Shown here in pieces: positions 1 through 59,181 of a DNA stretch of 64,000 nucleotides. The position numbers and the translations under genes are program-made. This stretch comes from an uncultured Holophagae bacterium (GTDB lineage: Bacteria > Acidobacteriota > Thermoanaerobaculia > Thermoanaerobaculales > Sulfomarinibacteraceae): NCBI GenBank assembly GCA_963844865.1, contig CAWJPY010000020.1, positions 48,298 to 112,297 on the forward strand. The letters run 5' to 3'. Below the pieces are notes generated by a model. The model did not search any database, was not told the origin of the DNA, and worked only from the letters and a program-made list of their open reading frames with translations. The first letter of the stretch is position 1. Each line of letters begins with the position of its first letter.

Positions 1-50
1 CAGTGATCGGCGACGGCGTCGGCCCGCAGCGTCGGCGGCCGCGCTCCGCC
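1..50. repeat. Z arm (CAGYG/CGGCG-rich low-complexity module), left end of four-helix-bundle cassette 1, cut by window edge
   Basis: cagtgatcggcgacggcgtcggcccgcagcgtcggcgg. It uses the same word set as the Z arms at 6.5, 10.5, 29.2, 53.3, 58.9 and 63.4 kb. Confidence 0.5.
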
Positions 51-61
51 CGCGGCGCGCT

Positions 62-184
62 GATGCTTTCGAGGCCTTCCCCGAGGGTGCCACCGCTGAC
101 ACTGTTTCCGGTCCCCACGCGGCGCACGGCCGGCACGTGTCGCTCCGGAAAAGTGGCACCAGTGGCACGCCCGGGGGACGCGCC
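62..184 (+). repeat. Y element copy 1 (long imperfect hairpin)
   Basis: Arms are TGCCACCGCTGACACTGTTTCCGG (88-111) and CCGGAAAAGTGGCACCAGTGGCA (145-167). The conserved 3' tail is CGCCCGGGGGACGCGCC. Confidence 0.8.
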
Positions 185-214
185 GAGGCGTAGCGCTTCG
201 GGAGCACCAGACAG

Positions 215-227
215 GGTGCCTGGCACC
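215..227. repeat. solo X-type palindrome GGTGCCTGGCACC with leader cgggagcaccagacag
   Basis: Exact 13-bp palindrome. The leader is shared with other X left ends. Confidence 0.8.
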
Positions 228-250
228 CCCTCTGGCCTCCCCAGCGACCT

Positions 251-646
251 TCAGGTGTTGGGGTGGAGGAGGCGCCAGGTCATCGCCCGCACGTGGTCGA
301 AGCCGTCCATGGCGTTCTGTGCTGCGGACGGACTGACGGCTCCTGTCGCGGCGAGGAGCCGCAGGTGGCTGTATCTCTTGCTCCGGGAGCACCAGAGAGG
401 GTGCCAGGCACCGCCGCAAATGAAGCGAAAGGGATTCTCGGACCGTCTTCGACGGTGCCTGGCACCCCCTTTGGCGAACCTCACGCGTCTCAAGTTCGCG
501 GGCACCGAGCTCGCGGAGCGAATCACCTGATCGCCGATCGGTTTGAGCTGCGCCGGCAGCCTCATCACGAGCTTGATCGCAGCGCCCGCCGCTTCGAGCG
601 CCAAGCGATGAGCAGCGAGACCAGTGCTAGGGATCGCGTTGAGCAT
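251..646 (-). pseudogene. four-helix-bundle protein paralog (23S rRNA IVS protein family) whose conserved core is replaced in frame by an X element
   Basis: The ORF aligns to the intact copy at 53435..53788 (LAAHRLALEAA..DQVIRSASSVPANL and HLRLLAATGAV..FDHVRAMTWRLL). The 27-aa segment AEGHGRSGRDRLHHWRIAYASAKEVDT is replaced by 41 aa encoded by the X repeat (..GGARHRRRRSENPFRFICGGAWHPLWCSRS..). Confidence 0.7.
400..466 (+). repeat. X element copy a (subfamily 2), inside four-helix-bundle gene copy 1
   Basis: GGTGCCAGGCACC (400-412), then 41 nt, then GGTGCCTGGCACC (454-466). Confidence 0.85.
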
Positions 647-791
647 GGTCACCTCCGGGTCGTTCATGCCCCCTCTCACAAGCCGGTGGCCGGCCCAGGT
701 CAAGGGTGCGAAGCACCGGGCTCCGAGCCCGGCTTGCCCTTGACCTGGGCCGGCCACCGGCTACGTTCTCAGACGAACGACCCGGAGTGAC
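647..791 (-). promoter_or_regulatory. long fold-back covering the SD and start codon of four-helix-bundle gene copy 1
   Basis: ggtcacctccgggtcgttc (647-665) is the reverse complement of gaacgacccggag-tgacc (775-792). An inner stem pairs ggcccaggtcaaggg with cccttgacctgggcc. Confidence 0.6.
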
Positions 792-1035
792 CATTGCCGC
801 CGCTCACTGCCGCCGCTCACTGCCGCCGCTCACTGCCGCCGCTCACTGCCGCCGCTCACTGCCGCCGCTCACTGCCGCCGCTCACTGCCGCCGCTCACTG
901 CCGCCGCTCACTGCCGCCGCTCACTGCCGCCGCTCACTGCCGCCGCTCACTGCCGCCGCTCACTGCCGCCGCTCACTGCCGCCGCTCACTGCCGCCGCTC
1001 ACTGCCGCCGCTCACTGCCGCCGCTCACTGCCGCT
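792..1035. repeat. 13-bp tandem repeat (CACTGCCGCCGCT), about 18.8 copies
   Basis: Perfect head-to-tail units from 805. The first unit is degenerate (cattgccgccgct) and the last is partial. A unit of 13 is not a multiple of 3. Confidence 0.95.
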
Positions 1036-4979: not shown

Positions 4980-5111
4980 GGCTCGACCTCCCCGACGGGA
5001 TCGCAGTAGTGATTCTTGATGATAGGGGAGTGGTCCCACCCTGTCCAGGAGGGAGGCGGCGGCACGTGGGCATGCCCTCGAGCAAGGGGACGAGATCGCG
5101 TGTACGGCGAG

Positions 5112-5380
5112 CTGCGTCGGCGACAGCGGCAGTTCACAGTGGCCGGGACCGGCGTCAGCGGCCAGCGGCAGCGTCGCCGATCAGCGACCGGGGCAGCGAG
5201 CAGCGACCGCGACCGGCGGCGGCCGGCGGCAGCCTCCGCGACGCCCCGCAGTGATTCGCGACCATCTGCACGGGACGCTGTCGCCGGGCGCCGACCGCTG
5301 CCGCTGGACGCTGGCGCTGAACGCTGGCGCTGCCGCGGTCCGGCGGTCCTGTCGCCGCCGCTGACCACCGTCGTCGCCTG
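5112..5380. repeat. Z fold-back: CAGCG-sense arm (about 5112-5215) facing CGCTG-sense arm (about 5274-5380), with no cargo
   Basis: Left arm has cagcggcag..gtcagcggccagcggcagcg..gatcagcgacc..gcagcgagcagcgacc. Right arm has gacgctgtcgcc..ccgctgccgctggacgctggcgctgaacgctggcgctgcc. Confidence 0.6.
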
Positions 5381-6695: not shown

Positions 6696-6762
6696 GGTGC
6701 CTGGCACGCCGTCTTGATTCGACAGGACGCGGATCGCTGCATTCGAAAGCGTGCCTGGCACC
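6696..6762 (+). repeat. X element copy b (subfamily 1, slightly degenerate ends)
   Basis: GGTGCCTGGCACg, then ccgtcttgattcgacaggacgc..cattcgaaag, then cGTGCCTGGCACC. Confidence 0.8.
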
Positions 6763-6794: not shown

Positions 6795-6923
6795 GACGCG
6801 CCGATTCTTTCGGCGCGTTCCCCGAGGTTGCCACCGCTGACACTTTTCCGGTCCCCACGCGAGGCGCGGCCGGCACGCGTCGCTCCGGAAAAGTGTCACC
6901 AGTGGCACGCCCGAGGGACGCGC
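6795..6923 (+). repeat. Y element copy 2 (reference copy)
   Basis: 5' mini-hairpin GCGCCGAttcttTCGGCGC. Arms are TTGCCACCGCTGACACTTTTCCGG (6828-6851) and CCGGAAAAGTGTCACCAGTGGCA (6885-6907). Tail is CGCCCGAGGGACGCGC. Confidence 0.85.
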
Positions 6924-6960: not shown

Positions 6961-7027
6961 GGTGCCAGGCACCGTCACGATCGAGCCGAGAAGGGTAGAC
7001 GCCGCATCTTCAACGGTGCCTGGCTCC
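6961..7027 (+). repeat. X element copy c (subfamily 2, right end degenerate)
   Basis: GGTGCCAGGCACC, then 41 nt, then GGTGCCTGGCtCC. Leader is gagcagagag. Confidence 0.7.
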
Positions 7028-10570: not shown

Positions 10571-10610
10571 CCGCGTCCGGTTGCTGCAAGACCGGAACGA
10601 CCGGGGGGGA

Positions 10611-10714
10611 GCACCTCTCTCGGGCGTTTCACTGGTGACGCTTTTCCGAGGGAGGGCGGACCGCCGCTGCGTCGCCCCCGGTCGGAAAAGTGTCAGCGGT
10701 GACAACCGTGGGGG
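10611..10714 (-). repeat. Y element copy 6 (reverse orientation, diverged 5' flank)
   Basis: Reverse complement reads TTGTCACCGCTGACACTTTTCCGA...TCGGAAAAGCGTCACCAGTGAAACGCCCGAGAGAGGTGC. Confidence 0.75.
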
Positions 10715-10760: not shown

Positions 10761-10828
10761 GGTGCCAGGCACCCCGTCTTGATTTGAAAGGCACGCGGAT
10801 CGCTCCCTCCGAACGGGTGCCTGGCACC
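10761..10828 (+). repeat. X element copy d (subfamily 1)
   Basis: GGTGCCAGGCACC, then ccgtcttgatttgaaaggcacgcggatcgc..ccgaacg, then GGTGCCTGGCACC. Confidence 0.85.
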
Positions 10829-13776: not shown

Positions 13777-13789
13777 GGTGCCTGGCACC
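13777..13789. repeat. solo X-type palindrome GGTGCCTGGCACC, 1 nt after the mazG stop
   Basis: Exact 13-mer followed by cgctctggcctatccgg, as at 6762-6780. Confidence 0.8.
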
Positions 13790-13822
13790 CGCTCTGGCCT
13801 ATCCGGAGTGACATCTCTCGGG

Positions 13823-13950
13823 CCGCGCCGATTCTGTCGACGCGCTTCCCGAGATTGCCACCGCTGACACTTTCACGACCGCACGTCACGCACGGTCGGT
13901 CCGCCCCACTTCGTGAAAGTGTCACCAGTGGCACGTCCGAGGGACGCGCC
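13823..13950 (+). repeat. Y element copy 3
   Basis: Arms are TTGCCACCGCTGACACTTTCACGA and TCGTGAAAGTGTCACCAGTGGCA. The distal stem is changed in a compensatory way relative to copy 2. Confidence 0.85.
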
Positions 13951-14030
13951 CTTCTCTCGGAGGACGCTGGCCCAAGTGAGCGGATCGCTGCCGCTGACCT
14001 CGGGGTAGGCCCTGAGAGAAGGGAGCGTCG

Positions 14031-17754: not shown

Positions 17755-17821
17755 GGTGCCAGGCACCTCGTCTTGATTCGACAGTACGCACATCGCTTCA
17801 TGCGAAAGGGTGCCTGGCACC
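17755..17821 (+). repeat. X element copy f (subfamily 1, reference copy)
   Basis: GGTGCCAGGCACC, then tcgtcttgattcgacagtacgcacatcgcttcatgcgaaag, then GGTGCCTGGCACC. Confidence 0.9.
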
Positions 17822-17981: not shown

Positions 17982-18039
17982 TGAGGCGTAGCGCTCCGGG
18001 AGCACCAGAGACTCGTGAGTCGCTGGCCCGCCTGGGCCG

Positions 18040-18118
18040 AACGCTGCCGCCGAACGCTGCCAGCTGCTGCGGACGCTGCTCACGGGCGCTGCTCGCGGAC
18101 GCGGACGCGGGGGTAGGG
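18040..18118. repeat. Z arm (CGCTG sense) with 13-mer gccgccgaacgct (about 1.8 copies) and the end motif gcggacgcggacgcggggg
   Basis: gaacgctgccgccgaacgctgccagctgctgcggacgctgctc..gcggacgcggacgcggggg. Confidence 0.6.
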
Positions 18119-20587: not shown

Positions 20588-20764
20588 GACGTTAGCAGTT
20601 AGAAGATAGAAGGCCGCCCGCCCACCCTCGCCACTCCATGCGACGGCGCGAGAGGTGAGGTGTGTCCCCTCCCACCAGCGGCGGTGCCGGAGCAGCGACC
20701 ATGACCGCGACAGCGGTGGCGGCAGTTAACAGCGTCCCCGGCACGTCTCTGAACGGGGTGATCG

Positions 20765-21024
20765 TCATGGTTTCGGGTTGAGCAGGCGCCAAGTCATTGC
20801 CCGCACACGGTCGAAGCGATCCAGCGCGGCCTGCGCCGAGGACCGACTGACAGCTCCCGTTGCGGCGAGGAGCCGCAGATGGCTGACCTCTCGCTTCGGG
20901 AGCACCAGAGAGGGTGCCAGGCACCGCCGCACATGAAGCGAAAGGGATTCTCGAACCGTTTTCGACGGTGCCTGGCACCCGCTCTGCCGCACCGGCCGTG
21001 GCCTTCCGCGAGATTCGCGGCCAC
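20765..21024 (-). pseudogene. four-helix-bundle protein remnant (5' half missing, X element replacement, frame broken)
   Basis: (V)AANLAEGHGR, then X-encoded ..GARHRRKRFENPFRFMCGGAWHPLWCSRSE, then in another frame HLRLLAATGAVSRSSAQAALDRFDRVRAMTWRLLNPKP. Confidence 0.75.
20913..20979 (+). repeat. X element copy g (subfamily 2)
   Basis: GGTGCCAGGCACC, then gccgcacatgaagcgaaagggattctcgaaccgttttcgac, then GGTGCCTGGCACC. Confidence 0.85.
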
Positions 21025-21151
21025 CGGCTACGTTCTCAGACGAACGACCCGGAGGCGACCATGCCGCCGAACGCTGCCGCCGAACGCTGCCCCGGCACCG
21101 TTGCGGGTGGGAGGGGGCACTTCTGACTTCTAACTTCTAACTTCTAACGTC

Positions 21152-22426
21152 TCACTTCCCTGTCACCGCGCGCCGCGCCCGGCCCAGGGCCACGTAGGCC
21201 ACGAGGACCTCGAAGCGGGCCGGCTCGAGAGGGAACCGGTACCGGCGAACGACGGTCGGCCCCCCGCCTGCGGCCACGGCGATGATCGCGGTGCCTGCCG
21301 GCACCCCGTCGGCGGCGGACGCCGTCCCGACGGTGGCGACGCCGACGCCGGCGGAGAAGCGGCGACGCACCGCCTCGGCCATGAGGACAGCCGCCTCGTC
21401 ACTGAGGAGGCCGGCTCGCTCCAGGTCGGCCGGCGGGATATCGAGCCCGCCGCTGACGCTGGGAAGGGTAGGGGCCAGGACACCGCCAAGGTAGACCTCT
21501 CCGACCCCGGCGACCGGGTCCAGGAGCTGGGCCACGGCGCCGGCGGTGCAGCCCTCGGCCGCGGCCAGGGTCGTCCCGTGACGCTGGAGGTCCTCCACCA
21601 CGCTTTCGGCGAAGGTGGTGTCCACCCGCCCCGGGCCCCAGGCGTAGACGTGCCTGCCGAGGCGTTGCCTGGCATCCGCCGCGATGCCTGCGAGCAGCTC
21701 GTTGCCACGGTCGTCGGCGATCCCGCGCAGCACCAGGCGCACGTGGATCTCAGGAAAGGTGGCCCGGTACTGCACCACGAGCTCCGAGCCCTCGGGGAGG
21801 TCCGCGCCGAGGCCCTCGAGCCGGCGTGCCACGTCACTTTCCCCCGCCCCGAAGATCTTGAGCACGGCCACGTCGGGCAGGGCCGGTCGCAGCCGGACAC
21901 GGAGCTCGGGGAGCACCGTCGTCTCGAAGATGTCCACGATCTCCCGGGGGACACCGGGCATGAAGTAGAGCCGGCAGCCGTCCGCGTCCACGGCGAACCC
22001 CACCGCAGTGCCCGAAGGGTTGGGGAGGATGGCTGCGCCTGCGGGGAGATCCGCCTGCTTCTCGTTGTTGGGGCTCATGGGGCGGCCACGGGCGGCGAAG
22101 AAGTCCCGGACGTGACGGAGCGCCTCGGGTGAGCGGACCAGGGGAACGCCGAAGGCCTCGGCCGCGCAGGCGGCGGTGAGGTCGTCACCGGTAGGTCCCA
22201 GCCCCCCGGAGACCAGCACCACGTCGCAGCGTGGGGCCATCTGGCGGAGGGCCGTCACCACCTCCGGGAGGTCATCGCCCACCGAGGTGTGGCGGACCAC
22301 CCGGTAGCCCTCGCCGTCCAGCCGCTCGGAGAGGGCCGCCGCGTTGGTGTCCACCAGCCGGCCCTCGATGAGCTCGTCCCCGATGGTCAGGATCTCGATC
22401 CGATTCGTTCCGCGTGTCAAGGTCAC
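21152..22426 (-). CDS. cinA: competence/damage-inducible protein CinA (MoCF-binding plus PncC-like nicotinamide-nucleotide amidase domains)
   Basis: 424 aa with ILTIGDELIEGRLVDTNAA..VSGGLGPTGDDLT and C-terminal ..GCTAGAVAQLL. GTG start. Confidence 0.85.
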   Translation of the reverse strand: MTLTRGTNRIEILTIGDELIEGRLVDTNAAALSERLDGEGYRVVRHTSVGDDLPEVVTALRQMAPRCDVVLVSGGLGPTGDDLTAACAAEAFGVPLVRSPEALRHVRDFFAARGRPMSPNNEKQADLPAGAAILPNPSGTAVGFAVDADGCRLYFMPGVPREIVDIFETTVLPELRVRLRPALPDVAVLKIFGAGESDVARRLEGLGADLPEGSELVVQYRATFPEIHVRLVLRGIADDRGNELLAGIAADARQRLGRHVYAWGPGRVDTTFAESVVEDLQRHGTTLAAAEGCTAGAVAQLLDPVAGVGEVYLGGVLAPTLPSVSGGLDIPPADLERAGLLSDEAAVLMAEAVRRRFSAGVGVATVGTASAADGVPAGTAIIAVAAGGGPTVVRRYRFPLEPARFEVLVAYVALGRARRAVTGK

Positions 22427-26701: not shown

Positions 26702-27997
26702 ATGACGCAGACGAGCGCGTTGGGCATCAACGGCCTGGGGAGGATCGGCAAGCTGGCGGTGTGGACCGAGGTGGCCGGCCGGCGCTTCGACAGACTGGTC
26801 GTGAACACCGGCCGCGGGGTGGGGCGCTCCCTCGACGCCCTGGCCCACTACCTCTCGGTGGACAGCACCTACGGCGCCTTGGGCCGATTCCTGCATGGAT
26901 GGGGTGGTGAACGGGGCTGTGTGCGCATTGCGGATCGCGACCGCCAGCTCCTGGACATCGACGGCGTGACCGTGCAGCTCCTCACCCAGCATCGCAACCC
27001 CAAGGACATCGGGTGGGCGGACCACGGGGTGCGCCTGGTGGTGGACACCACCGGCGTCTTCCGGGATCCGACCCATCCCGCGTCCCATCCGGGGGGCAGC
27101 CTGCAGGGCCACCTGGAGGCGGGGGCGCAGGCCGTGCTGGTGAGTGCCGCCTTCAAGCTCTCGGACCGCGGCGCGCGGCTCCCGGAGGAGAGCGTGATGC
27201 TGATCTACGGCATCAACCACCAGGTCTACGACCCCGCGCACCACTCCATGATCTCCGCCGCCTCGTGCACCACCACCGCCCTGGCCCACATGATGCTGCC
27301 CCTGCTCAACCACCAGCTCACCCACCAGATGCTCACCGCCTCCATGTCCACGGTCCACGCCGCCACCAACTCCCAGAGCGTGCTCGACACCGTGCCCAAG
27401 AGCGGGGCCAAGGACCTGCGCAAGAACCGGTCGGTGATGAACAACATCATCCTCACCTCCACCAACGCCGCCCAGGCGCTGGAGCAGGTGATCCCGGAGA
27501 TCTCAACCATCGGGTTCCTCGCGGACTCGGTGCGCATCCCCATCCCGACCGCCTCCCTCATCATCCTCAACTGCACCTTCCAGTCCCGCCTCGACGACTA
27601 CGGCGCCAGCCTCATCAACCGCGGTTCGGTGAACGCCATCTACGCCGACTACGCCCGCGGCCCCGAAAGCGGAGTGGTGTTCTCCAACGACCAGAACGTG
27701 TCCACCGACATGGTGGGCGAGCCGGCGGCGGTGGTCATCGAGGGCTCGGAGACCCACGCCCGGACCGGCTTCACCCACGTGGACCTGGCCGAGCTGGGGC
27801 TGAGTGCCGCCACCGGCGGCCTGGAGCGGGTGGAGGTGCCGGTCACCCACCTCAAGCTGTTCGGGTGGTACGACAACGAGCTCGGCTCCTACACCAGGCG
27901 CATGAGCCAGCTCACCCACTTCGTGGCCGAGCGCCTGGGAATCGAGACGCCCAAGAGCATCACGGCGGCAAAGCCGGTGCCAGGCACCCCGTCTTGA
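26702..27997 (+). CDS. glyceraldehyde-3-phosphate dehydrogenase-like oxidoreductase (atypical, 431 aa)
   Basis: GINGLGRIGK Rossmann motif and a catalytic-Cys region SAASCTTTALAHM. GAGGAGAAGGG precedes the ATG. The last ~8 codons and the stop lie inside X copy h. Confidence 0.7.
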   Translation: MTQTSALGINGLGRIGKLAVWTEVAGRRFDRLVVNTGRGVGRSLDALAHYLSVDSTYGALGRFLHGWGGERGCVRIADRDRQLLDIDGVTVQLLTQHRNPKDIGWADHGVRLVVDTTGVFRDPTHPASHPGGSLQGHLEAGAQAVLVSAAFKLSDRGARLPEESVMLIYGINHQVYDPAHHSMISAASCTTTALAHMMLPLLNHQLTHQMLTASMSTVHAATNSQSVLDTVPKSGAKDLRKNRSVMNNIILTSTNAAQALEQVIPEISTIGFLADSVRIPIPTASLIILNCTFQSRLDDYGASLINRGSVNAIYADYARGPESGVVFSNDQNVSTDMVGEPAAVVIEGSETHARTGFTHVDLAELGLSAATGGLERVEVPVTHLKLFGWYDNELGSYTRRMSQLTHFVAERLGIETPKSITAAKPVPGTPS

Positions 27998-28042
27998 TTT
28001 GACAGTACGCGCACCGCCTCAGCCGAAAGGGTGCCTGGCACC
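27976..28042 (+). repeat. X element copy h (subfamily 1)
   Basis: GGTGCCAGGCACC, then ccgtcttgatttgacagtacgcgcaccgcctcagccgaaag, then GGTGCCTGGCACC. Confidence 0.9.
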
Positions 28043-29307: not shown

Positions 29308-29373
29308 GGTGCCAGGCAGCATTCGGGTGAATCGATGTGCGTGCTGTCGAATCAAGACGGGGTGCCAGGCACC
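29308..29373 (-). repeat. X element copy i (subfamily 1, reverse)
   Basis: GGTGCCAGGCAgc, then attcgggtgaatcgatgtgcgtgctgtcgaatcaagacgg, then GGTGCCAGGCACC. Confidence 0.8.
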
Positions 29374-45581: not shown

Positions 45582-45615
45582 CCCGCTCACGCGGGACAGC
45601 CACTTCCAGAGAACA

Positions 45616-45750
45616 GCACCTCCCTCGGGCGTGCCATAGGTGACACCTTCCCGTGGCCTCGCGGACCGGCAACGGGTCGCTCGGGGTCGGGAAAGCGTCA
45701 GCGGTGGCAACCGCGGGGAAGGCGCCGACAGAATGGCGCGTCGCGGCGAC
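45616..45750 (-). repeat. Y element copy 7 (reverse)
   Basis: Reverse complement reads gcgccattctgtcggcgccttccccgcgGTTGCCACCGCTGACGCTTTCCCGA...GGGAAGGTGTCACCTATGGCACGCCCGAGGGAGGTGC. Confidence 0.8.
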
Positions 45751-45839
45751 CTCCCGCCCTCCGGGTGGGTCAGAGACCGAGCACTTTGGGCAGGCCAGAC
45801 ACGCTGCACGCCGCCGCTGACTGCTGCCCCTGTCGCTGA

Positions 45840-51934: not shown

Positions 51935-52025
51935 TCGGGTCCCGCGGCCGGCCCGTGGGCCGGGTGCGGCAGAGCCTGAGCCGCCGGCTTGACCGTTGAC
52001 GGCCGACGGAGCAGACTCGCACACC

Positions 52026-53309
52026 ATGAACGAGCTGGTCCTGATCGTGGACGACGAGCCCGGAATCCTCACGACGCTGTCGGGCATCCTGAGCGACGAG
52101 GGGTACCGCACCCTGACCACCACCAGCGGCGAGGAGGCGATCGAGCTCTACCGCCGTGAGCATCCGGACGTGGTGTTCCTGGACATCTGGCTGCCGGACC
52201 GCGACGGTCTCGAGACCCTGGAGGCGCTGCGCCAGCTGGACCCGGGGGTGGCGGTCATCATGATGTCCGGGCACGGCACGTCGGCGACGGCCGTGAAGGC
52301 CGTCAAGATGGGCGCCCACGACTACCTGGAGAAACCGCTCTCCTACGATCAGGCCGTCGATGCGGTGGAAAGCGCCCTGGGCAGGAGGTCCGGTGACCTG
52401 CACGCCAACGGCCTCGCGCAGGCCGCGGGCGACCGCGCCTACCAGCAGCCCCCGCGGCTGCCACTGCTCCAGCCCACCGACCGGCCGCAACGCACCATCC
52501 GCTCCAGCTCCGTGATGTACGGGCTCGGGCTGCATTCGGGCATGCGCACCGGGATGGTGATGCAGCCCCTGCCACCCGACAGCGGGATCCACTTCCTGAC
52601 GCTGCCTCGGGGGACCGAGATTCCGGCCCACATCACGTCGGTGGCGGAGACCGACTATGCCACCACCCTCACCGGCGGCGGCGACAGCATCCGCACCGTG
52701 GAGCATCTCCTGTCGGCGCTCCACGCCTACGGGATCAGTAACCTCCTGATCAAGGTCCACGGCGAGATCCCCGTGCTCGACGGGTCGGCCCTGGAGTTCT
52801 GCGACCACTTGGACGAGATCGGCGTCGTGGATCAGCCCGCTCCCCGCCAGGAGATCGTCATCGACCGCGTCTATGAGGTCGGGGACGGGGACCGGACGCT
52901 GTCCATCGAACCAGCGGACTCGTTCTCCGTGTCCTACCTGCTGCGTTACCCGCCGCCGGTGGGGGAGCAGCGCCACGACTTCACCCTCGATGACCCCGCG
53001 GAGTACCGGGCGCGGATCGCGCCGGCGCGCACCTTCGGCTTCATGCGTGACCTGAAGATGATGAACGAGCTCGGGCTCGGCTCCGGGGGTCGCCTGGACA
53101 ACTTCGTCCTGGTGGGCGAGGACGAGGTGATCAACACCGAGCTCCGGTTTCCAGACGAGTTCGTCCGTCACAAGATCCTCGACATCATCGGGGATCTCTA
53201 CCTGTTGGGCTACCCGGTCCGGGGGAGGGTGACGGCGCGCCTGACCGGCCATCGCCACAACATCGCCCTGCAGCGTGCGATCCTCGAGCAGGCCGGCCAG
53301 AGGGCTTAG
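52026..53309 (+). CDS. lpxC: response-regulator receiver domain fused to UDP-3-O-acyl-GlcNAc deacetylase (REC-LpxC)
   Basis: REC: LVLIVDDEPGIL..FLDIWLPDRDG..MSGHG..EKPL. LpxC: GLGLHSG, TVEHLLSAL, FVRHKILDIIGDLYLLG and TGHRHNIAL, so the metal and catalytic residues appear present. Confidence 0.85.
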   Translation: MNELVLIVDDEPGILTTLSGILSDEGYRTLTTTSGEEAIELYRREHPDVVFLDIWLPDRDGLETLEALRQLDPGVAVIMMSGHGTSATAVKAVKMGAHDYLEKPLSYDQAVDAVESALGRRSGDLHANGLAQAAGDRAYQQPPRLPLLQPTDRPQRTIRSSSVMYGLGLHSGMRTGMVMQPLPPDSGIHFLTLPRGTEIPAHITSVAETDYATTLTGGGDSIRTVEHLLSALHAYGISNLLIKVHGEIPVLDGSALEFCDHLDEIGVVDQPAPRQEIVIDRVYEVGDGDRTLSIEPADSFSVSYLLRYPPPVGEQRHDFTLDDPAEYRARIAPARTFGFMRDLKMMNELGLGSGGRLDNFVLVGEDEVINTELRFPDEFVRHKILDIIGDLYLLGYPVRGRVTARLTGHRHNIALQRAILEQAGQRA

Positions 53310-53434
53310 CAGCGTCCTCGTCAGCGATCGGGGGCAGCGACAGCGATCGGCGACGGCGGCCGCGGCAGTCAACAGCGTCGGCGATCAGCGCACAGCGCCC
53401 GTCGCCCCCGGTACGTCACTGAAAGTGGAGGCCG

Positions 53435-53788
53435 TCAGGCGTGCGGGTTGAGGAGGCGCCATGTCATCGCCCGCACGCGGTCGAAGAGATCCAGGGCGGT
53501 CTGTGCCCAGGATCGATTGACGGCTCCTGTCGCGGCGAGGAGCCGCAGGTGGGTGTCGACCTCTTTAGCGGAGGCATACGCAATCCGCCAGTGGTGCAGC
53601 CGGTCCCGACCGGACCGACCGTGGCCTTCCGCCAGGTTCGCGGGCACCGAGCTCGCCGAGCGAATCACCTGGTCGGCAATCGCCTTCAGGGGCGCCGGCA
53701 ACCTCATTACGAGCTTGATAGCCCCGCTCGCAGCTTCGAGCGCCAAGCGATGAGCAGCAAGGCCGGGTTGGGTGTTGGCATCGAGCAT
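53435..53788 (-). CDS. four-helix-bundle protein (23S rRNA intervening-sequence protein family; Avd-like fold)
   Basis: 117 aa: MLDANTQPGLAAHRLALEAA..ADQVIRSASSVPANLAEGHGRSGRDRLHHWRIAYASAKEVDTHLRLL... SD GGAGGTG lies 4 nt before ATG 53788. Confidence 0.8.
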   Translation of the reverse strand: MLDANTQPGLAAHRLALEAASGAIKLVMRLPAPLKAIADQVIRSASSVPANLAEGHGRSGRDRLHHWRIAYASAKEVDTHLRLLAATGAVNRSWAQTALDLFDRVRAMTWRLLNPHA

Positions 53789-53974
53789 GGTCACCTCCGG
53801 GTCGTTCATGCCTCCTCTCACAAGCCGGTGGCCGACCCATGTCAAGGGTGCTTCGCAGCTGCACAGCAGCTGCGAAGCACCGGACCATCGGTCCGGCCCA
53901 CCCTCGGCGAGGGTGGGCCCTTTACCTGGGCCGGCCACCGGCTACGTTCTCGGACGAACGACCCGGAGATGACC
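53789..53974 (-). promoter_or_regulatory. ~185-nt fold-back that can sequester the SD and start codon of the four-helix-bundle gene
   Basis: On the minus-strand RNA, GGUCAUCUCCGGGUCGUUC (53974-53956) can pair over 19 bp (one G-U) with GAACGACCCGGAGGUGACC (53807-53789). Perfect internal hairpins are GTGCTTCGCAGCTGC-aca-GCAGCTGCGAAGCAC and GGCCCACCCTC-ggc-GAGGGTGGGCC. Confidence 0.6.
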
Positions 53975-54000
53975 ATGCCGCCGATCGCTGCCGCCGATCG

Positions 54001-54573
54001 CTACGTCTGTCCGTCTCCGACCACGAGCATGGCGAGGCGGGAGGCGCCGCCGGAGAGGTCCCTGTGCAGCCGGAGGGGCGCCGGGATCTCCCTGAGGTCC
54101 GCCTGCGCCGGGCACTCCAGGCAGGCCAGGGCGCCGGGCGCCAGGAGGTCGCGGGCAAACGCGTGGGCGAGCGCTGAGAGCCCCTCCTGCCAGGACGTGA
54201 AGGGTGGATCCGCCCAGGCGAGGTCGAAGCGCTGGTCGCGCTTCAGGAGCGTCGTCAGTGCCGAGGCAACGGGCCTGAGCAGGATCTGCGCGTGCTCCCG
54301 CTCGACGCCGAGAGCCTCCCGATTGGCCTCGATCAACCTCGCCGCCGAGCGTTGTCGCTCCACGAACACCACCCGCGCCGCGCCGCGGGAGAGGGCCTCG
54401 AACCCCACCGCTCCGGAGCCCGCGTAGAGGTCGAGGAACGAGGCGCCGGTCACGCGGTCTGCGAGGACCGCGAAAGCCCGCTCGCGAAGGGCGTCGGGGG
54501 TGGGTCGCAGCGCCGTCCCGCGGCCCGGCCCCCGCAGGCGGCGCGACCGCCACTCGCCGCCGGTGATTCTCAT
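54001..54573 (-). CDS. rsmD: 16S rRNA (guanine966-N2)-methyltransferase RsmD
   Basis: 190 aa with LDLYAGSGAVGFEALSRGA and WADPPF. Confidence 0.85.
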   Translation of the reverse strand: MRITGGEWRSRRLRGPGRGTALRPTPDALRERAFAVLADRVTGASFLDLYAGSGAVGFEALSRGAARVVFVERQRSAARLIEANREALGVEREHAQILLRPVASALTTLLKRDQRFDLAWADPPFTSWQEGLSALAHAFARDLLAPGALACLECPAQADLREIPAPLRLHRDLSGGASRLAMLVVGDGQT

Positions 54574-59009: not shown

Positions 59010-59097
59010 GGCGCGTCCCTCGGGCGTGCCATTGGCGACACTTTTCCGAGGTCTCGGGGAGGGCGCGGGGAAGACTTCGCGTCGCGAGAGGTGTCGC
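59010..59097 (-). repeat. Y element copy 8 (reverse; 5' arm of the long stem deleted)
   Basis: The reverse complement keeps gacacctctcgcgacgcg.. and GGAAAAGTGTCGCCAATGGCACGCCCGAGGGACGCGCC. It lacks GCCACCGCTGACAC. Confidence 0.7.
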
Positions 59098-59115: not shown

Positions 59116-59181
59116 GGTGCCAGGCAGCATTCGGATGAAGCGATGTGGGTGCTATCGAATGAAGACGGGGTGCCTGGCACC
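59116..59181 (-). repeat. X element copy j (subfamily 1, reverse)
   Basis: GGTGCCAGGCAgc, then attcggatgaagcgatgtgggtgctatcgaatgaagacgg, then GGTGCCTGGCACC. Confidence 0.8.

Follow-up and report, generated by a model that had tools for sequence, protein, structure and literature searches.

The window analysed here, the whole 64-kb stretch of DNA, holds three copies of a gene of the PF05635/TIGR02436 family, one intact (53435-53788, minus strand) and two degraded, and each copy has inverted low-complexity sequence on both sides (Table 1). The first-pass annotation had described three cassettes wrapped in inverted repeats; all three are indeed present and so wrapped, but only the gene of copy 3 is intact, those of copies 1 and 2 being interrupted by MITEs. 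Neither rRNA nor any other Rfam family was found in the window at gathering score. Copy 2 lies between convergent genes for an acetyl-CoA hydrolase (+) and CinA (-) and copy 3 between convergent genes for a receiver-LpxC protein (+) and RsmD (-), in agreement with the earlier statement that the cassettes stand outside rRNA. Their placement in convergent gaps is true of copies 2 and 3 but is no rule: both neighbours are convergent in 25 of 79 related loci, a count that rests on crude GC3-based gene calls, and PF05635 genes in other phyla sit within co-directional operons.

Table 1. Features of the three cassette copies, in window coordinates.
Feature	Position	Strand	Evidence and remarks
Copy 1, 3' side, cut by window edge	1..235	-	CAG-type arm (1-57), MITE-B (60-190), half MITE-A (200-235)
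Copy 1, disrupted ORF	251..646	-	MITE-A inside at 392-474; no Pfam match
Copy 1, 5' hairpin	644..795	-	Fold energy and covariance model
Copy 1, 5' arm, 13-mer CAGTGAGCGGCGG x18.5, perfect units	795..1034	-	Tandem-array scan
Copy 2, 3'-side outer layers	20588..20697	-	GTTAGAAG-type 7-mer array, then GTGTCCCCTCCCACC... arm; inverted-repeat list
Copy 2, ORF remnant, residues about 48-116	20771..21024	-	Broken by MITE-A at 20899-20993
Copy 2, hairpin 5' arm remnant and 13-mer CAGCGTTCGGCGG x2.3	21018..21091	-	93% identity to copy 3 counterpart
Copy 2, 5'-side outer layers	21085..21158	-	Complement of 20651-20697 arm, and ACTTCTA x5.7
Copy 3, 3' arm	53310..53405	-	Sense strand CGCTG-rich, + strand CAGCG-rich; extends to receiver-LpxC stop codon
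Copy 3, intact 117-aa PF05635/TIGR02436 ORF	53435..53788	-	Profile matches, AF2 four-helix bundle, Foldseek
Copy 3, 5' hairpin	53786..53977	-	Fold energy and covariance model
Copy 3, 5' arm, 13-mer CAGCGATCGGCGG x2.1	53976..54002	-	Adjoins RsmD stop codon; tandem-array and inverted-repeat scans

Copies 1 and 2 are pseudogenes in which MITE-A (~95 nt, with GGTGCCWGGCACC boxes at its ends) stands in place of the codons around helices 2-3, with an identical right junction in both, and in copy 2 the stretch that would run from halfway along the 5' hairpin arm to inside the ORF is missing as well. In tblastn searches the copy 3 protein matched positions 257-646 (59% identity, E = 5e-36) and, in two pieces, 20771-21024. 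Copy 3 has 18-nt inverted flanks that match at 94% (53323-53340 with 53985-54002), while the flanks of copy 2 are in three layers, 25, 47 and 40 nt long and matched at 92%, 81% and 80%, respectively. The 3' arm of copy 3 contains 5-7 CAGCG per 100 nt and pairs with 53976-54002 in both the inverted-repeat list and the MFE fold of the whole cassette; its ORF has an alternative 124-aa start 21 nt upstream. Read 5' to 3' on the sense strand, the established anatomy of the cassette is a CAG-unit arm, a 150-190-nt hairpin, the 117-aa ORF and a complementary CTG arm.

The copy 3 ORF scores 58.1 bits against PF05635 (cut-off 33.8) and 59.6 bits against TIGR02436 (cut-off 24), and the AF2 model of its product, a monomer, consists of four helices with a pLDDT of 92.6. 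Foldseek gave TM-scores of 0.82 to Xcc0516 (2GSC) and BT_0352 (2RLD) and of 0.77 to Avd (4DWL) and the DGR RNP (8UB7), which bears out the assignment from sequence to the IVS family of four-helix bundles related to Avd. A homopentameric ring is a trait of this family. The conserved family motif, RxxxSxxxNxxE (PMC3936711), is present in the copy 3 protein as IRSASSVPANLAEG (residues 42-55), and in the alignment of related proteins R43, S47 and E54 are invariant and N51 is nearly so. The protein is basic, with 15 Arg+Lys vs 9 Asp+Glu as counted from its sequence.

The dominant structure of the cassette, overlooked in the first-pass annotation, is the hairpin immediately 5' of the ORF, which pairs the Shine-Dalgarno sequence and the start codon. 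In copy 3 the outer stem pairs GGAGGTGACCATG, comprising both of these signals, the inner stem bears CCCTTGACA and the apex is made of three small hairpins. The copy 3 hairpin has a fold energy of -172 kcal/mol (z -15.1) and scores 111.5 bits with the covariance model; for copy 1 these values are -123.5 kcal/mol (z -12.0) and 140.5 bits. The hairpin stands ahead of all ~87 related copies, with 94% of cells paired and 27 of 40 pairs changed on both sides; none of 500 shuffles reached as high a value, and slid controls were 27-47% paired. Covariance-model matches in 0.89 Mb fell solely directly 5' of IVP ORFs. Its conservation with compensatory changes and its obligate linkage to the ORF are established, and we rejected an independent hairpin MITE, as no ORF-less, solo copy was found by the model in the same 0.89 Mb. 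Searches of Rfam 15 returned no family at gathering score, and the permissive matches were at chance level (E at least 0.12). The 3' arm of the hairpin holds a TTGACA box along with the Shine-Dalgarno sequence and start codon. Consensus scans for sigma-70 promoters and terminators found nothing at the cassettes; promoter-like conservation is limited to the -35-like box, and of the TA-initiated -10-like hexamers the better one is found on the other strand. Because the sigma-70 scan passes none, we treat the TTGACA box as a hypothetical promoter. We also rejected the variable stem of the hairpin as an IS110-type guide to the flanks (8.24 shared bases for cognate vs 8.13 for non-cognate pairs).

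Each arm consists of CAG units (CAGNNN(N) in the Thermoanaerobaculia) arrayed 6-7 nt apart, a spacing found in 71% and 64% of gaps vs about 1% in the ORF. Their polarity is fixed irrespective of neighbour orientation, with CAGCG:CGCTG ratios of 500:6 upstream and 19:331 downstream. Terminal complementarity above shuffled sequence had been proposed for the cassettes, and the flanks of copies 2 and 3 do beat mononucleotide shuffles (z 13.8 and 5.3, respectively), but this pairing is generic to the repeat class: overall, cognate arms score 40.2 vs 34.8 for non-cognate arms, a small excess. Since the arms of copy 3, with a match score of 32, do no better than mixed pairs, whose two arms come from different cassettes (mean 34.8), the complementarity is a property of the repeat class and not of copy 3, and we rejected a copy-specific terminal complementarity. 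Motifs shared by both arms were seen in copy 1 (CAGTGA) and in copy 3 (CAGCGATCGG). Further, CAG/CTG arms also flank other repeats in the window and one empty pair lies at 5110-5370; the arms may therefore be part of the intergenic repeat flora of the genome and not of the cassette. Sense-strand RNA pairing should favour G.U over A.C mismatches, but the counts show no such bias in the arms (G.U 15 to A.C 10, and 136 to 145) or in the hairpins (105 to 131), and this asymmetry was discarded as a discriminator between RNA and DNA.

The first-pass annotation supposed a large family from three copies, and this proved correct: at least 420 confirmed stretches occur among species representatives, and single Thermoanaerobaculia MAGs hold 18-21 copies. 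ORFs are intact in 85 of 87 related copies with a dN/dS of 0.15-0.22 (about 0.16), substitution rates that indicate that the IVP protein is under purifying selection. The neighbours of 80 copies comprise 164 Pfam families in 136 proteins, none of them recurrent, and no transposase, integrase or reverse transcriptase recurs beside these ~80 copies. That no reverse transcriptase is nearby, as stated earlier for the window, also holds more widely: the three window copies adjoin named enzymes and no RT family is found in two or more of the 136 neighbours. Comparison of the cassette with the window gave just the other cassettes and low-complexity arms and no template/variable repeat pair, and the cassette subfamily had no match in plasmids, viral contigs, PADLOC or PHROGs.

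A comparison of related genomes, suggested at first pass as a search for empty gaps, revealed no clean empty gap, though the unit does vary between strains. In strain L091 a MITE-A/B composite occupies the place of cassette 3 between flanks that are 98.3% and 98.1% identical to those of the window. This is a whole-gap replacement and not a clean insertion, so that no junctions or target duplication are defined at the site. The 13-mer array of copy 2 has 8 units in strain L171 vs 2 in the window, the CinA-side contig of L171 ending inside the repeat. Such strain polymorphism establishes the gain, loss or replacement of cassettes between strains. The window cassettes end in low-complexity arrays, and the sole ORF of the unit is the four-helix bundle. 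In the MAG CAWCLO, 21 copies share a ~1.1-kb unit with a 19-bp terminal inverted repeat (CACTGCTGTCCAAAACAGA / TCTGTCTTGGACAAGAGTG), and no target-site duplication is evident at the ends of this unit.

We also sampled 18 PF05635 loci from other lineages, including the Xanthomonadales, cyanobacteria and Gemmatirosa, and found 14 to be enclosed by complementary 7-8-mer arrays (z 5-19), with a purine-rich heptamer array on one side and its complement on the other. These 14 are independent lineages, each with its own heptamer, and at several loci in other phyla the 5' array touches or overlaps the annotated start codon. The control was a 50-kb stretch of a heptamer-rich Nostoc plasmid with 46 genes, of which just one, the IVP gene itself, was enclosed in this way. 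PF05635 genes were found inside the tight operon junctions accB|accC, cmr2|cmr3 and cas6|cas4. The Xanthomonadales gene is single-copy and fixed between accB and accC, and looks domesticated rather than selfish.

Our best explanation, which we hold with about even confidence, is that the window copies are a dispersed, selfish IVS-type cassette that resides outside rRNA and folds so that its ORF is occluded. Arms and hairpin would together form a self-folding module, which may be why the insert is tolerated in tight intergenic gaps. In transcripts that read into the cassette, the ribosome-binding site would be hidden in a long helix, itself a likely substrate for RNase III by analogy with the 23S IVS. 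Translation of the ORF would require either processing or a transcript initiated within the hairpin, at the TTGACA box, following the fold-back logic of IS10 and IS200. Taking the Avd of the DGR ribonucleoprotein as a model, we infer that the protein binds the nucleic acid of its own cassette, most obviously the hairpin or the periodic repeats, and that it is required for the persistence or spread of the cassette. Counting against the selfish-cassette reading are the symmetry of G.U and A.C, the lack of a promoter match, the near-generic arms, the occurrence of CAG/CTG arms around other repeats and as an empty pair, the replacement type of polymorphism and the fixed Xanthomonadales gene.

A rival explanation is a foldback element that acts at the level of DNA, in which the arms are inverted subterminal arrays of binding motifs, the hairpin is a cruciform or single-stranded site for a recombinase encoded elsewhere, and the protein is an accessory or passenger. 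Subterminal, inverted arrays of short binding motifs are known from hAT/Ac and eukaryotic Foldback elements. The symmetry of wobble-type mismatches between strands, the defined inverted-repeat ends of the ~1.1-kb unit in 21 CAWCLO copies and the nested layers with other MITEs inserted within them all fit such an element, as does the common right junction of MITE-A in copies 1 and 2, which is what the in-trans spread of an already disrupted copy would leave. However, the surroundings of 80 copies contain no recurrent transposase or integrase, and target-site duplication was not seen. Strong purifying selection on nearly every ORF is unexpected for a passenger, and the hairpin buries precisely the RBS and start codon, a translational feature. 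We consider this explanation unlikely.

An ordinary host gene family, its hairpin being an autoregulatory 5' UTR, its arms heptamer microsatellites made by slippage and its copies the result of duplication rather than mobility, would account for the gene fixed between accB and accC in Xanthomonadales, for the CAG arms around other repeats in the window and for heptamer arrays being genome-wide, as with the 186 GGGAATC arrays of Xanthomonas, 70 of them in inverted pairs (PMC4692102). It seems distinctly improbable given 80 copies with unrelated neighbours, a site that differs between strains and the presence of pseudogenised copies; moreover, 14 of 18 independent lineages are enclosed, each by a different heptamer, and on the heptamer-rich plasmid complementary arrays enclose the IVP gene alone of 46. 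A retroelement satellite, whose Avd-like protein would serve an RT encoded elsewhere and whose complementary arms would be created and renewed by fold-back self-priming of an RNA intermediate, is very improbable: the structural match to Avd, including Avd within the DGR RNP, and arms that co-vary slightly more within than between cassettes (CAGTGA in copy 1, CAGCGATCGG in copy 3) speak for it, but there is no RT among recurrent neighbours, no template/variable repeat pair in the self-comparison, no relative in viral contigs, and no poly-A or other retro-signature in the cassette sequences inspected.

The selfish-cassette reading can be widened, as a tentative proposal that we think possible rather than probable, to one widespread unrecognised element made of PF05635 and inverted 6-8-nt arrays, with the ORF looped out on a repeat-built stem. 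The abundant pairs of heptamer arrays that have no ORF would then be either its derivatives, decayed or non-autonomous, or else the regulon of the protein; the GGGAATC arrays of Xanthomonas, the heptamer repeats of cyanobacteria and, in the window, the empty CAG/CTG foldback (5110-5370) are candidates. The ring protein would read periodic repeats, and the 23S IVS would be a special case that landed in an rRNA helix. A model for such recognition is TRAP, which reads spaced triplets.

To our knowledge, the PF05635 IVS proteins, a family of thousands of members homologous to the Avd of DGRs, have been without a known function since the 1990s. In the loci compared, the gene stands nearly always between complementary arrays of fixed polarity with its RBS buried in a helix, and the repeat-arm wrapping in 14 of 18 genes from other lineages makes the function of the family open to testing. 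The hairpin and the repeat arrays are concrete candidate ligands where previously there were none. The bacterial heptamer tandem repeats, a second old puzzle, are here joined to the IVS protein family, and the same arrangement offers a possible explanation for how gene-sized inserts are tolerated in operon junctions (accB|accC, cmr2|cmr3, cas6|cas4) and rRNA helices.

Among known systems, the 23S IVS shares with these cassettes the protein family, an ORF between complementary arms and an RBS region inside the stem. In Coxiella, the S23p ORF is preceded by tandem heptamers, at the first of which RNase III cuts, and the ORF-bearing 23S IVSs of Coxiella and Leptospira are regarded as selfish, degraded ORFs being common (PMC4990558). 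The cassettes likewise have heptamers 5' of the ORF in strain-variable number; unlike the 23S IVS, they lie between protein genes at tens per genome, possess an additional conserved hairpin of 150 nt that separates the ORF from the 5' arm, and carry an ORF under purifying selection rather than decaying. The protein resembles the Avd of DGRs in being basic and a four-helix bundle (TM 0.77, rmsd 1.9 A), yet identity is 12-14% and the cassettes have neither an adjacent RT nor template/variable repeats. Inverted heptamer pairs of unknown function have been described as GGGAATC in Xanthomonas and GGGGAYT in Nostoc, in a paper whose main text ties the heptamers to no protein and mentions none of XCC0516, accB and accC (PMC4692102). 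With units of 6-8 nt in two close, convergent, intergenic arrays, the cassette arms are inverted tandem-repeat pairs of this kind; both are tandem 7-mers of strain-variable length and always of convergent polarity, with the G- or purine-rich array 5' on each strand, whereas the arrays here enclose a PF05635 gene. MITEs, REP/BIME clusters and Correia elements share with the present unit a palindromic, nested, extragenic and strain-variable character and a frequent location at the 3' ends of genes, but this unit bears a conserved ORF under selection and its hairpin never occurs apart from that ORF. Finally, fold-back inhibition of transposase translation is known from IS10/IS50. IS200 and ISPpu9 have 5' structures that occlude the RBS (PMC4513863, PMC8450116). 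The cassette, too, hides the RBS of its own gene in a 5' stem-loop, although this gene is no transposase, the putative promoter would lie inside the hairpin, and the stem, at about 65 bp with 27 covarying pairs, is much longer.

Directly 5' of the IVP ORF, the four-helix-bundle gene known from 23S rRNA intervening sequences (IVS), lies a long hairpin that the first-pass annotation overlooked. Its outer stem pairs GAACGACCCGGAGGTGACCATG, which comprises the Shine-Dalgarno sequence and start codon, with its complement, and is followed by a purine-rich internal loop, an inner stem of ~27 bp harboring the invariant TGTCAAGGG / CCCTTGACA, and a variable apex. We sampled the best 80 relative loci from species-representative genomes along with 10 from the contigs of one protein and found the hairpin in every copy, since the only two loci missed by a first string search (L011 and L086) also yielded one to a covariance model. 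Among 30 hairpin representatives (<=93% identical), 94% of cells are paired and 27 of 40 pairs have changed on both sides; none of 500 shuffles reached these values and slid registers were 27-47% paired. The covarying part comprises the 16-17 nt from the TTGACA box to the stem base. Across 0.89 Mb, the covariance model built from the hairpin alignment matched only directly ahead of IVP ORFs, with no solo hairpin and none ahead of another gene, and Rfam holds no family resembling it. We tested whether the variable stem acts like a guide and rejected this role. Read from the strand that does not encode the ORF, the palindrome has the form TTGACA-N16/17-TAnnnn, in which the TA is invariant across copies and the -10-like spacing is better than on the ORF strand; this arrangement suggests a possible outward transcript into the tandem array.

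Features of the three cassette copies, other repeats in the window and comparison loci
Feature	Position	Remark
Copy 1 ORF remnant	257-646	pseudogene, MITE-A inside
Copy 1 hairpin	644-795	-123.5 kcal/mol, z -12.0
Copy 2 ORF remnant	20771-21024	pseudogene, MITE-A inside
Copy 2 13-mer array	21062-21091	
Copy 3 ORF	53435-53788	minus strand
Copy 3 hairpin	53786-53977	-172 kcal/mol, z -15.1
Opposite-strand boxes, example	53918-53960	
MITE-A	392-474, 6696-6762, 6961-7027, 10761-10828, 17755-17821, 20899-20993, 27976-28042, 29308-29373, 59116-59181	
MITE-B	60-190, 6815-6920, 10610-10710, 13777-13994, 45582-45782, 59010-59050	
Empty foldback	5110-5370	
13-mer pair	18036-18061	
Receiver-LpxC gene	51996-53309	
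PF05635 gene, Xanthomonas and Dokdonella	L172 2425-2872; L175 2490-2924	accB/accC interval
Direct heptamer arrays, Pseudanabaena galeata plasmid	L184 595-802 and 1161-1280	

The window has a G+C content of 70% and is most closely related to MAGs of Thermoanaerobaculia / Candidatus Sulfomarinibacteraceae (Acidobacteriota). As proposed from the sequence, the copy 3 ORF clearly belongs to PF05635 and TIGR02436 by profile search, and its product is structurally related to Avd, the accessory protein of diversity-generating retroelements (DGR). The AlphaFold2 model is a confident four-helix bundle (pLDDT 92.6) whose top Foldseek matches are Xcc0516 (2GSC) and BT_0352 (2RLD), with a TM of 0.82 each, followed by Avd (4DWL, TM 0.77) and then Avd in the DGR ribonucleoprotein (8UB7). 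The protein is basic (Arg+Lys 15 vs Asp+Glu 9 by direct count) and carries the published family motif RxxxSxxxNxxE (PMC3936711), while the family has been described as functionally uncharacterised (PMC11270868, PMC10053308). The two other copies claimed in the window were recovered but both are pseudogenes, their mid-gene part having been replaced by MITE-A with an identical right-hand junction; copy 2 has additionally lost the stretch from the middle of an upstream-hairpin arm into the ORF. MITE-A is a ~95-nt element with two GGTGCCWGGCACC boxes at its ends, 54 nt apart, for which we counted 22 box matches in the window vs 0.4 expected, and its insertion point in copies 1 and 2 is a small palindrome of the IVP ORF. 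MITE-B, a ~110-nt hairpin element (…CCGCTGACACTTTTCCGG … CCGGAAAAGTGTCACCAGTGGC…), frequently adjoins MITE-A and CAG-type arms.

The cassette is a dispersed, strain-variable unit. The large family anticipated from three copies comprises at least 420 confirmed stretches, and the Thermoanaerobaculia MAGs CAWCLO and CAVZOK hold at least 21 and at least 18 copies, the 21 and 18 being those within the best 80 of the at least 420. The ORF is intact in 85 of 87 cases, with a dN/dS of 0.15-0.22 across all divergence levels. The 136 nearest neighbours at the best 80 of the at least 420 loci represent 164 Pfam families, of which only common response regulators recur, and no reverse transcriptase or transposase is among the families seen at least twice. 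The repeated unit of CAWCLO, ~1.1 kb long, is bounded by a defined inverted repeat, beyond which lie more 7-mer arrays. We also observed in CAWCLO (L014-L088) an extra lower-GC segment of 130 nt (…GAAGTTTCCCACCTGACAACACGTGGTTTACGGGTTGGTTTTTGGCA…), which the window copies lack, ~330 nt upstream of the hairpin, where it separates the CAG arm from the outer inverted repeat; this segment possibly represents a promoter or small RNA.

Comparison with relatives, which the first-pass annotation had recommended, revealed turnover. At the cassette 3 site, a metagenomic strain contig (L091) has flanks 98.3% and 98.1% identical to the window, and its receiver-LpxC/RsmD gap holds, instead of the 691-nt cassette, 506 nt of unrelated repeats made up of MITE-A, MITE-B and the CAG/CTG arms belonging to them. 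Relative to the stop codons, the break falls 15 nt inside LpxC and 3 nt beyond RsmD. At the copy 2 site, the same metagenome retains the outer cassette layers with eight 13-mers vs two in the window. The receiver-LpxC gene, a response-regulator receiver domain fused N-terminally to LpxC, is kept in ~80 metagenomic relatives (64-99% identity), and its last five codons differ between the strains through the cassette/replacement boundary.

Within the window the flanking genes converge and the cassette flanks are inverted, both as first described, and the 13-mer array of copy 1 is perfect over 18.5 units. A convergent gap is not the rule, however, as crude gene calls show two convergent neighbours at only 25 of 79 loci and a convergent downstream neighbour at 57 of 83. 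The arms enclosing the cassette are arrays of CAGNNN(N) units of fixed polarity, given that CAG-to-CAG distances of 6 or 7 nt make up 71% of gaps upstream and 64% downstream vs ~1% within the ORF. Over 81 copies, the 250 nt before the hairpin contain 500 CAGCG vs 6 CGCTG and the 250 nt after the stop codon 19 vs 331, independent of neighbour gene orientation. The reverse arrangement, CTG...CAG, is essentially never seen, and cargo orientation is unconstrained because a CAG...CTG pair is identical on both strands. Arm complementarity averages 40.2 within a cassette, a slight gain over the 34.8 between cassettes (p 3e-4), and both values are far above the 18.0 of shuffles. The minimum-free-energy fold of the 701-nt copy 3 sense strand joins both cassette ends, but with an arm score of 32 its terminal pairing is no better than that of generic low-complexity 'Z-type' sequence, the comparison by which the first-pass annotation had proposed to judge it; arm pairing is a property of the repeat class. 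Arms of the CAG/CTG kind also lie beside other repeats in the window. One 'empty' foldback between two plus-strand genes (CAGCG-rich arm, ~40 nt spacer, CGCTG-rich arm, no cargo) may be either a cassette that has decayed or a repeat-class member in its own right. Further, the 13-mer GCCGAACGCTGCC of the cassette 2 array occurs twice 3 kb away, adjoining MITE copies and without an IVP gene.

The wrapping extends to other phyla. Using a fragment of Xcc0516 as the Xanthomonadales query, we located orthologues of it in Xanthomonas and Dokdonella. They sit in the accB/accC interval, on the same strand as both genes and at a position fixed across the order, and are enclosed by (GGGAATC)n or (GGGGAAT)n together with the complementary array (Dokdonella flank match 31 nt, 90%). 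Plasmids from cyanobacteria, Gemmatirosa and Azospirillum supplied 16 further PF05635 genes. In 14 of 18 loci (z 5 to 19) the ORF is preceded by a purine-rich tandem array of 7-8-nt units and followed by the complementary array; the units differ from locus to locus (AGTAGGG, GAGGGCAG, AGGAGATA, CAGGTGA, GGGAAAA and others), and in several the 5' array touches or overlaps the annotated start codon. As a control, we examined the 46 annotated genes on 50 kb of a Nostoc plasmid rich in heptamers, of which the IVP gene alone has complementary flanks (z 15 vs an all-gene median of 0.07); the remaining inverted array pairs there are empty. These PF05635 genes occupy tight junctions, namely cmr2|cmr3, cas6|cas4, nrdB|nrdA, parA|parB and integrase|hypothetical. 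The arm rule is broken on a Pseudanabaena galeata plasmid, where the IVP gene in the cas6/cas4 junction has ~15 upstream AAAAGCT heptamers and 14 downstream AAAAGCC heptamers that are direct and not inverted, with a complementary GCTTTTA array farther upstream. In Xanthomonas, 186 GGGAATC arrays have been reported, including 70 arranged as convergent inverted pairs, with function unknown and no protein linked (PMC4692102), and our full-text literature searches found no paper connecting the IVS protein family with heptamer repeats.

We hypothesize that arms and hairpin form a self-folding module, and it is for this reason that the insert would be tolerated in gaps and operon junctions. In transcripts reading in from outside, the ribosome-binding site would be locked within a long helix that, by analogy with rRNA IVSs, may be a natural RNase III substrate, and translation of the ORF would require a transcript starting within the hairpin, or processing. 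The Avd-like protein would bind the cassette's own nucleic acid. IS10 and IS50 follow the same fold-back translation logic. It is also known from IS200 and ISPpu9 (PMC4513863, PMC8450116). However, neither arms nor hairpin are biased toward G.U over A.C, and the cassette scan found no consensus promoter. Both results count against a purely sense-RNA mechanism, and a foldback element acting at the DNA level and mobilised in trans is therefore a serious rival. It is less likely that the gene is a domesticated regulator amid generic microsatellites.

The covarying hairpin occluding the ribosome-binding site and the cross-phylum repeat-arm rule make two old puzzles, the function of PF05635 and the heptamer repeats, accessible to tests. 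The observation of IVS-like cassettes in the first-pass annotation stands and its interpretation is supported in part. We rejected the cassette as a 23S IVS because it lies outside the defining rRNA location, but it is built like one. The Coxiella 23S IVS likewise has a repeat array 5' of an IVS-family ORF, with a variable number of GACAGAT heptamers ahead of the S23p ORF, and RNase III cutting at the first repeat removes the Shine-Dalgarno region (PMC4990558).
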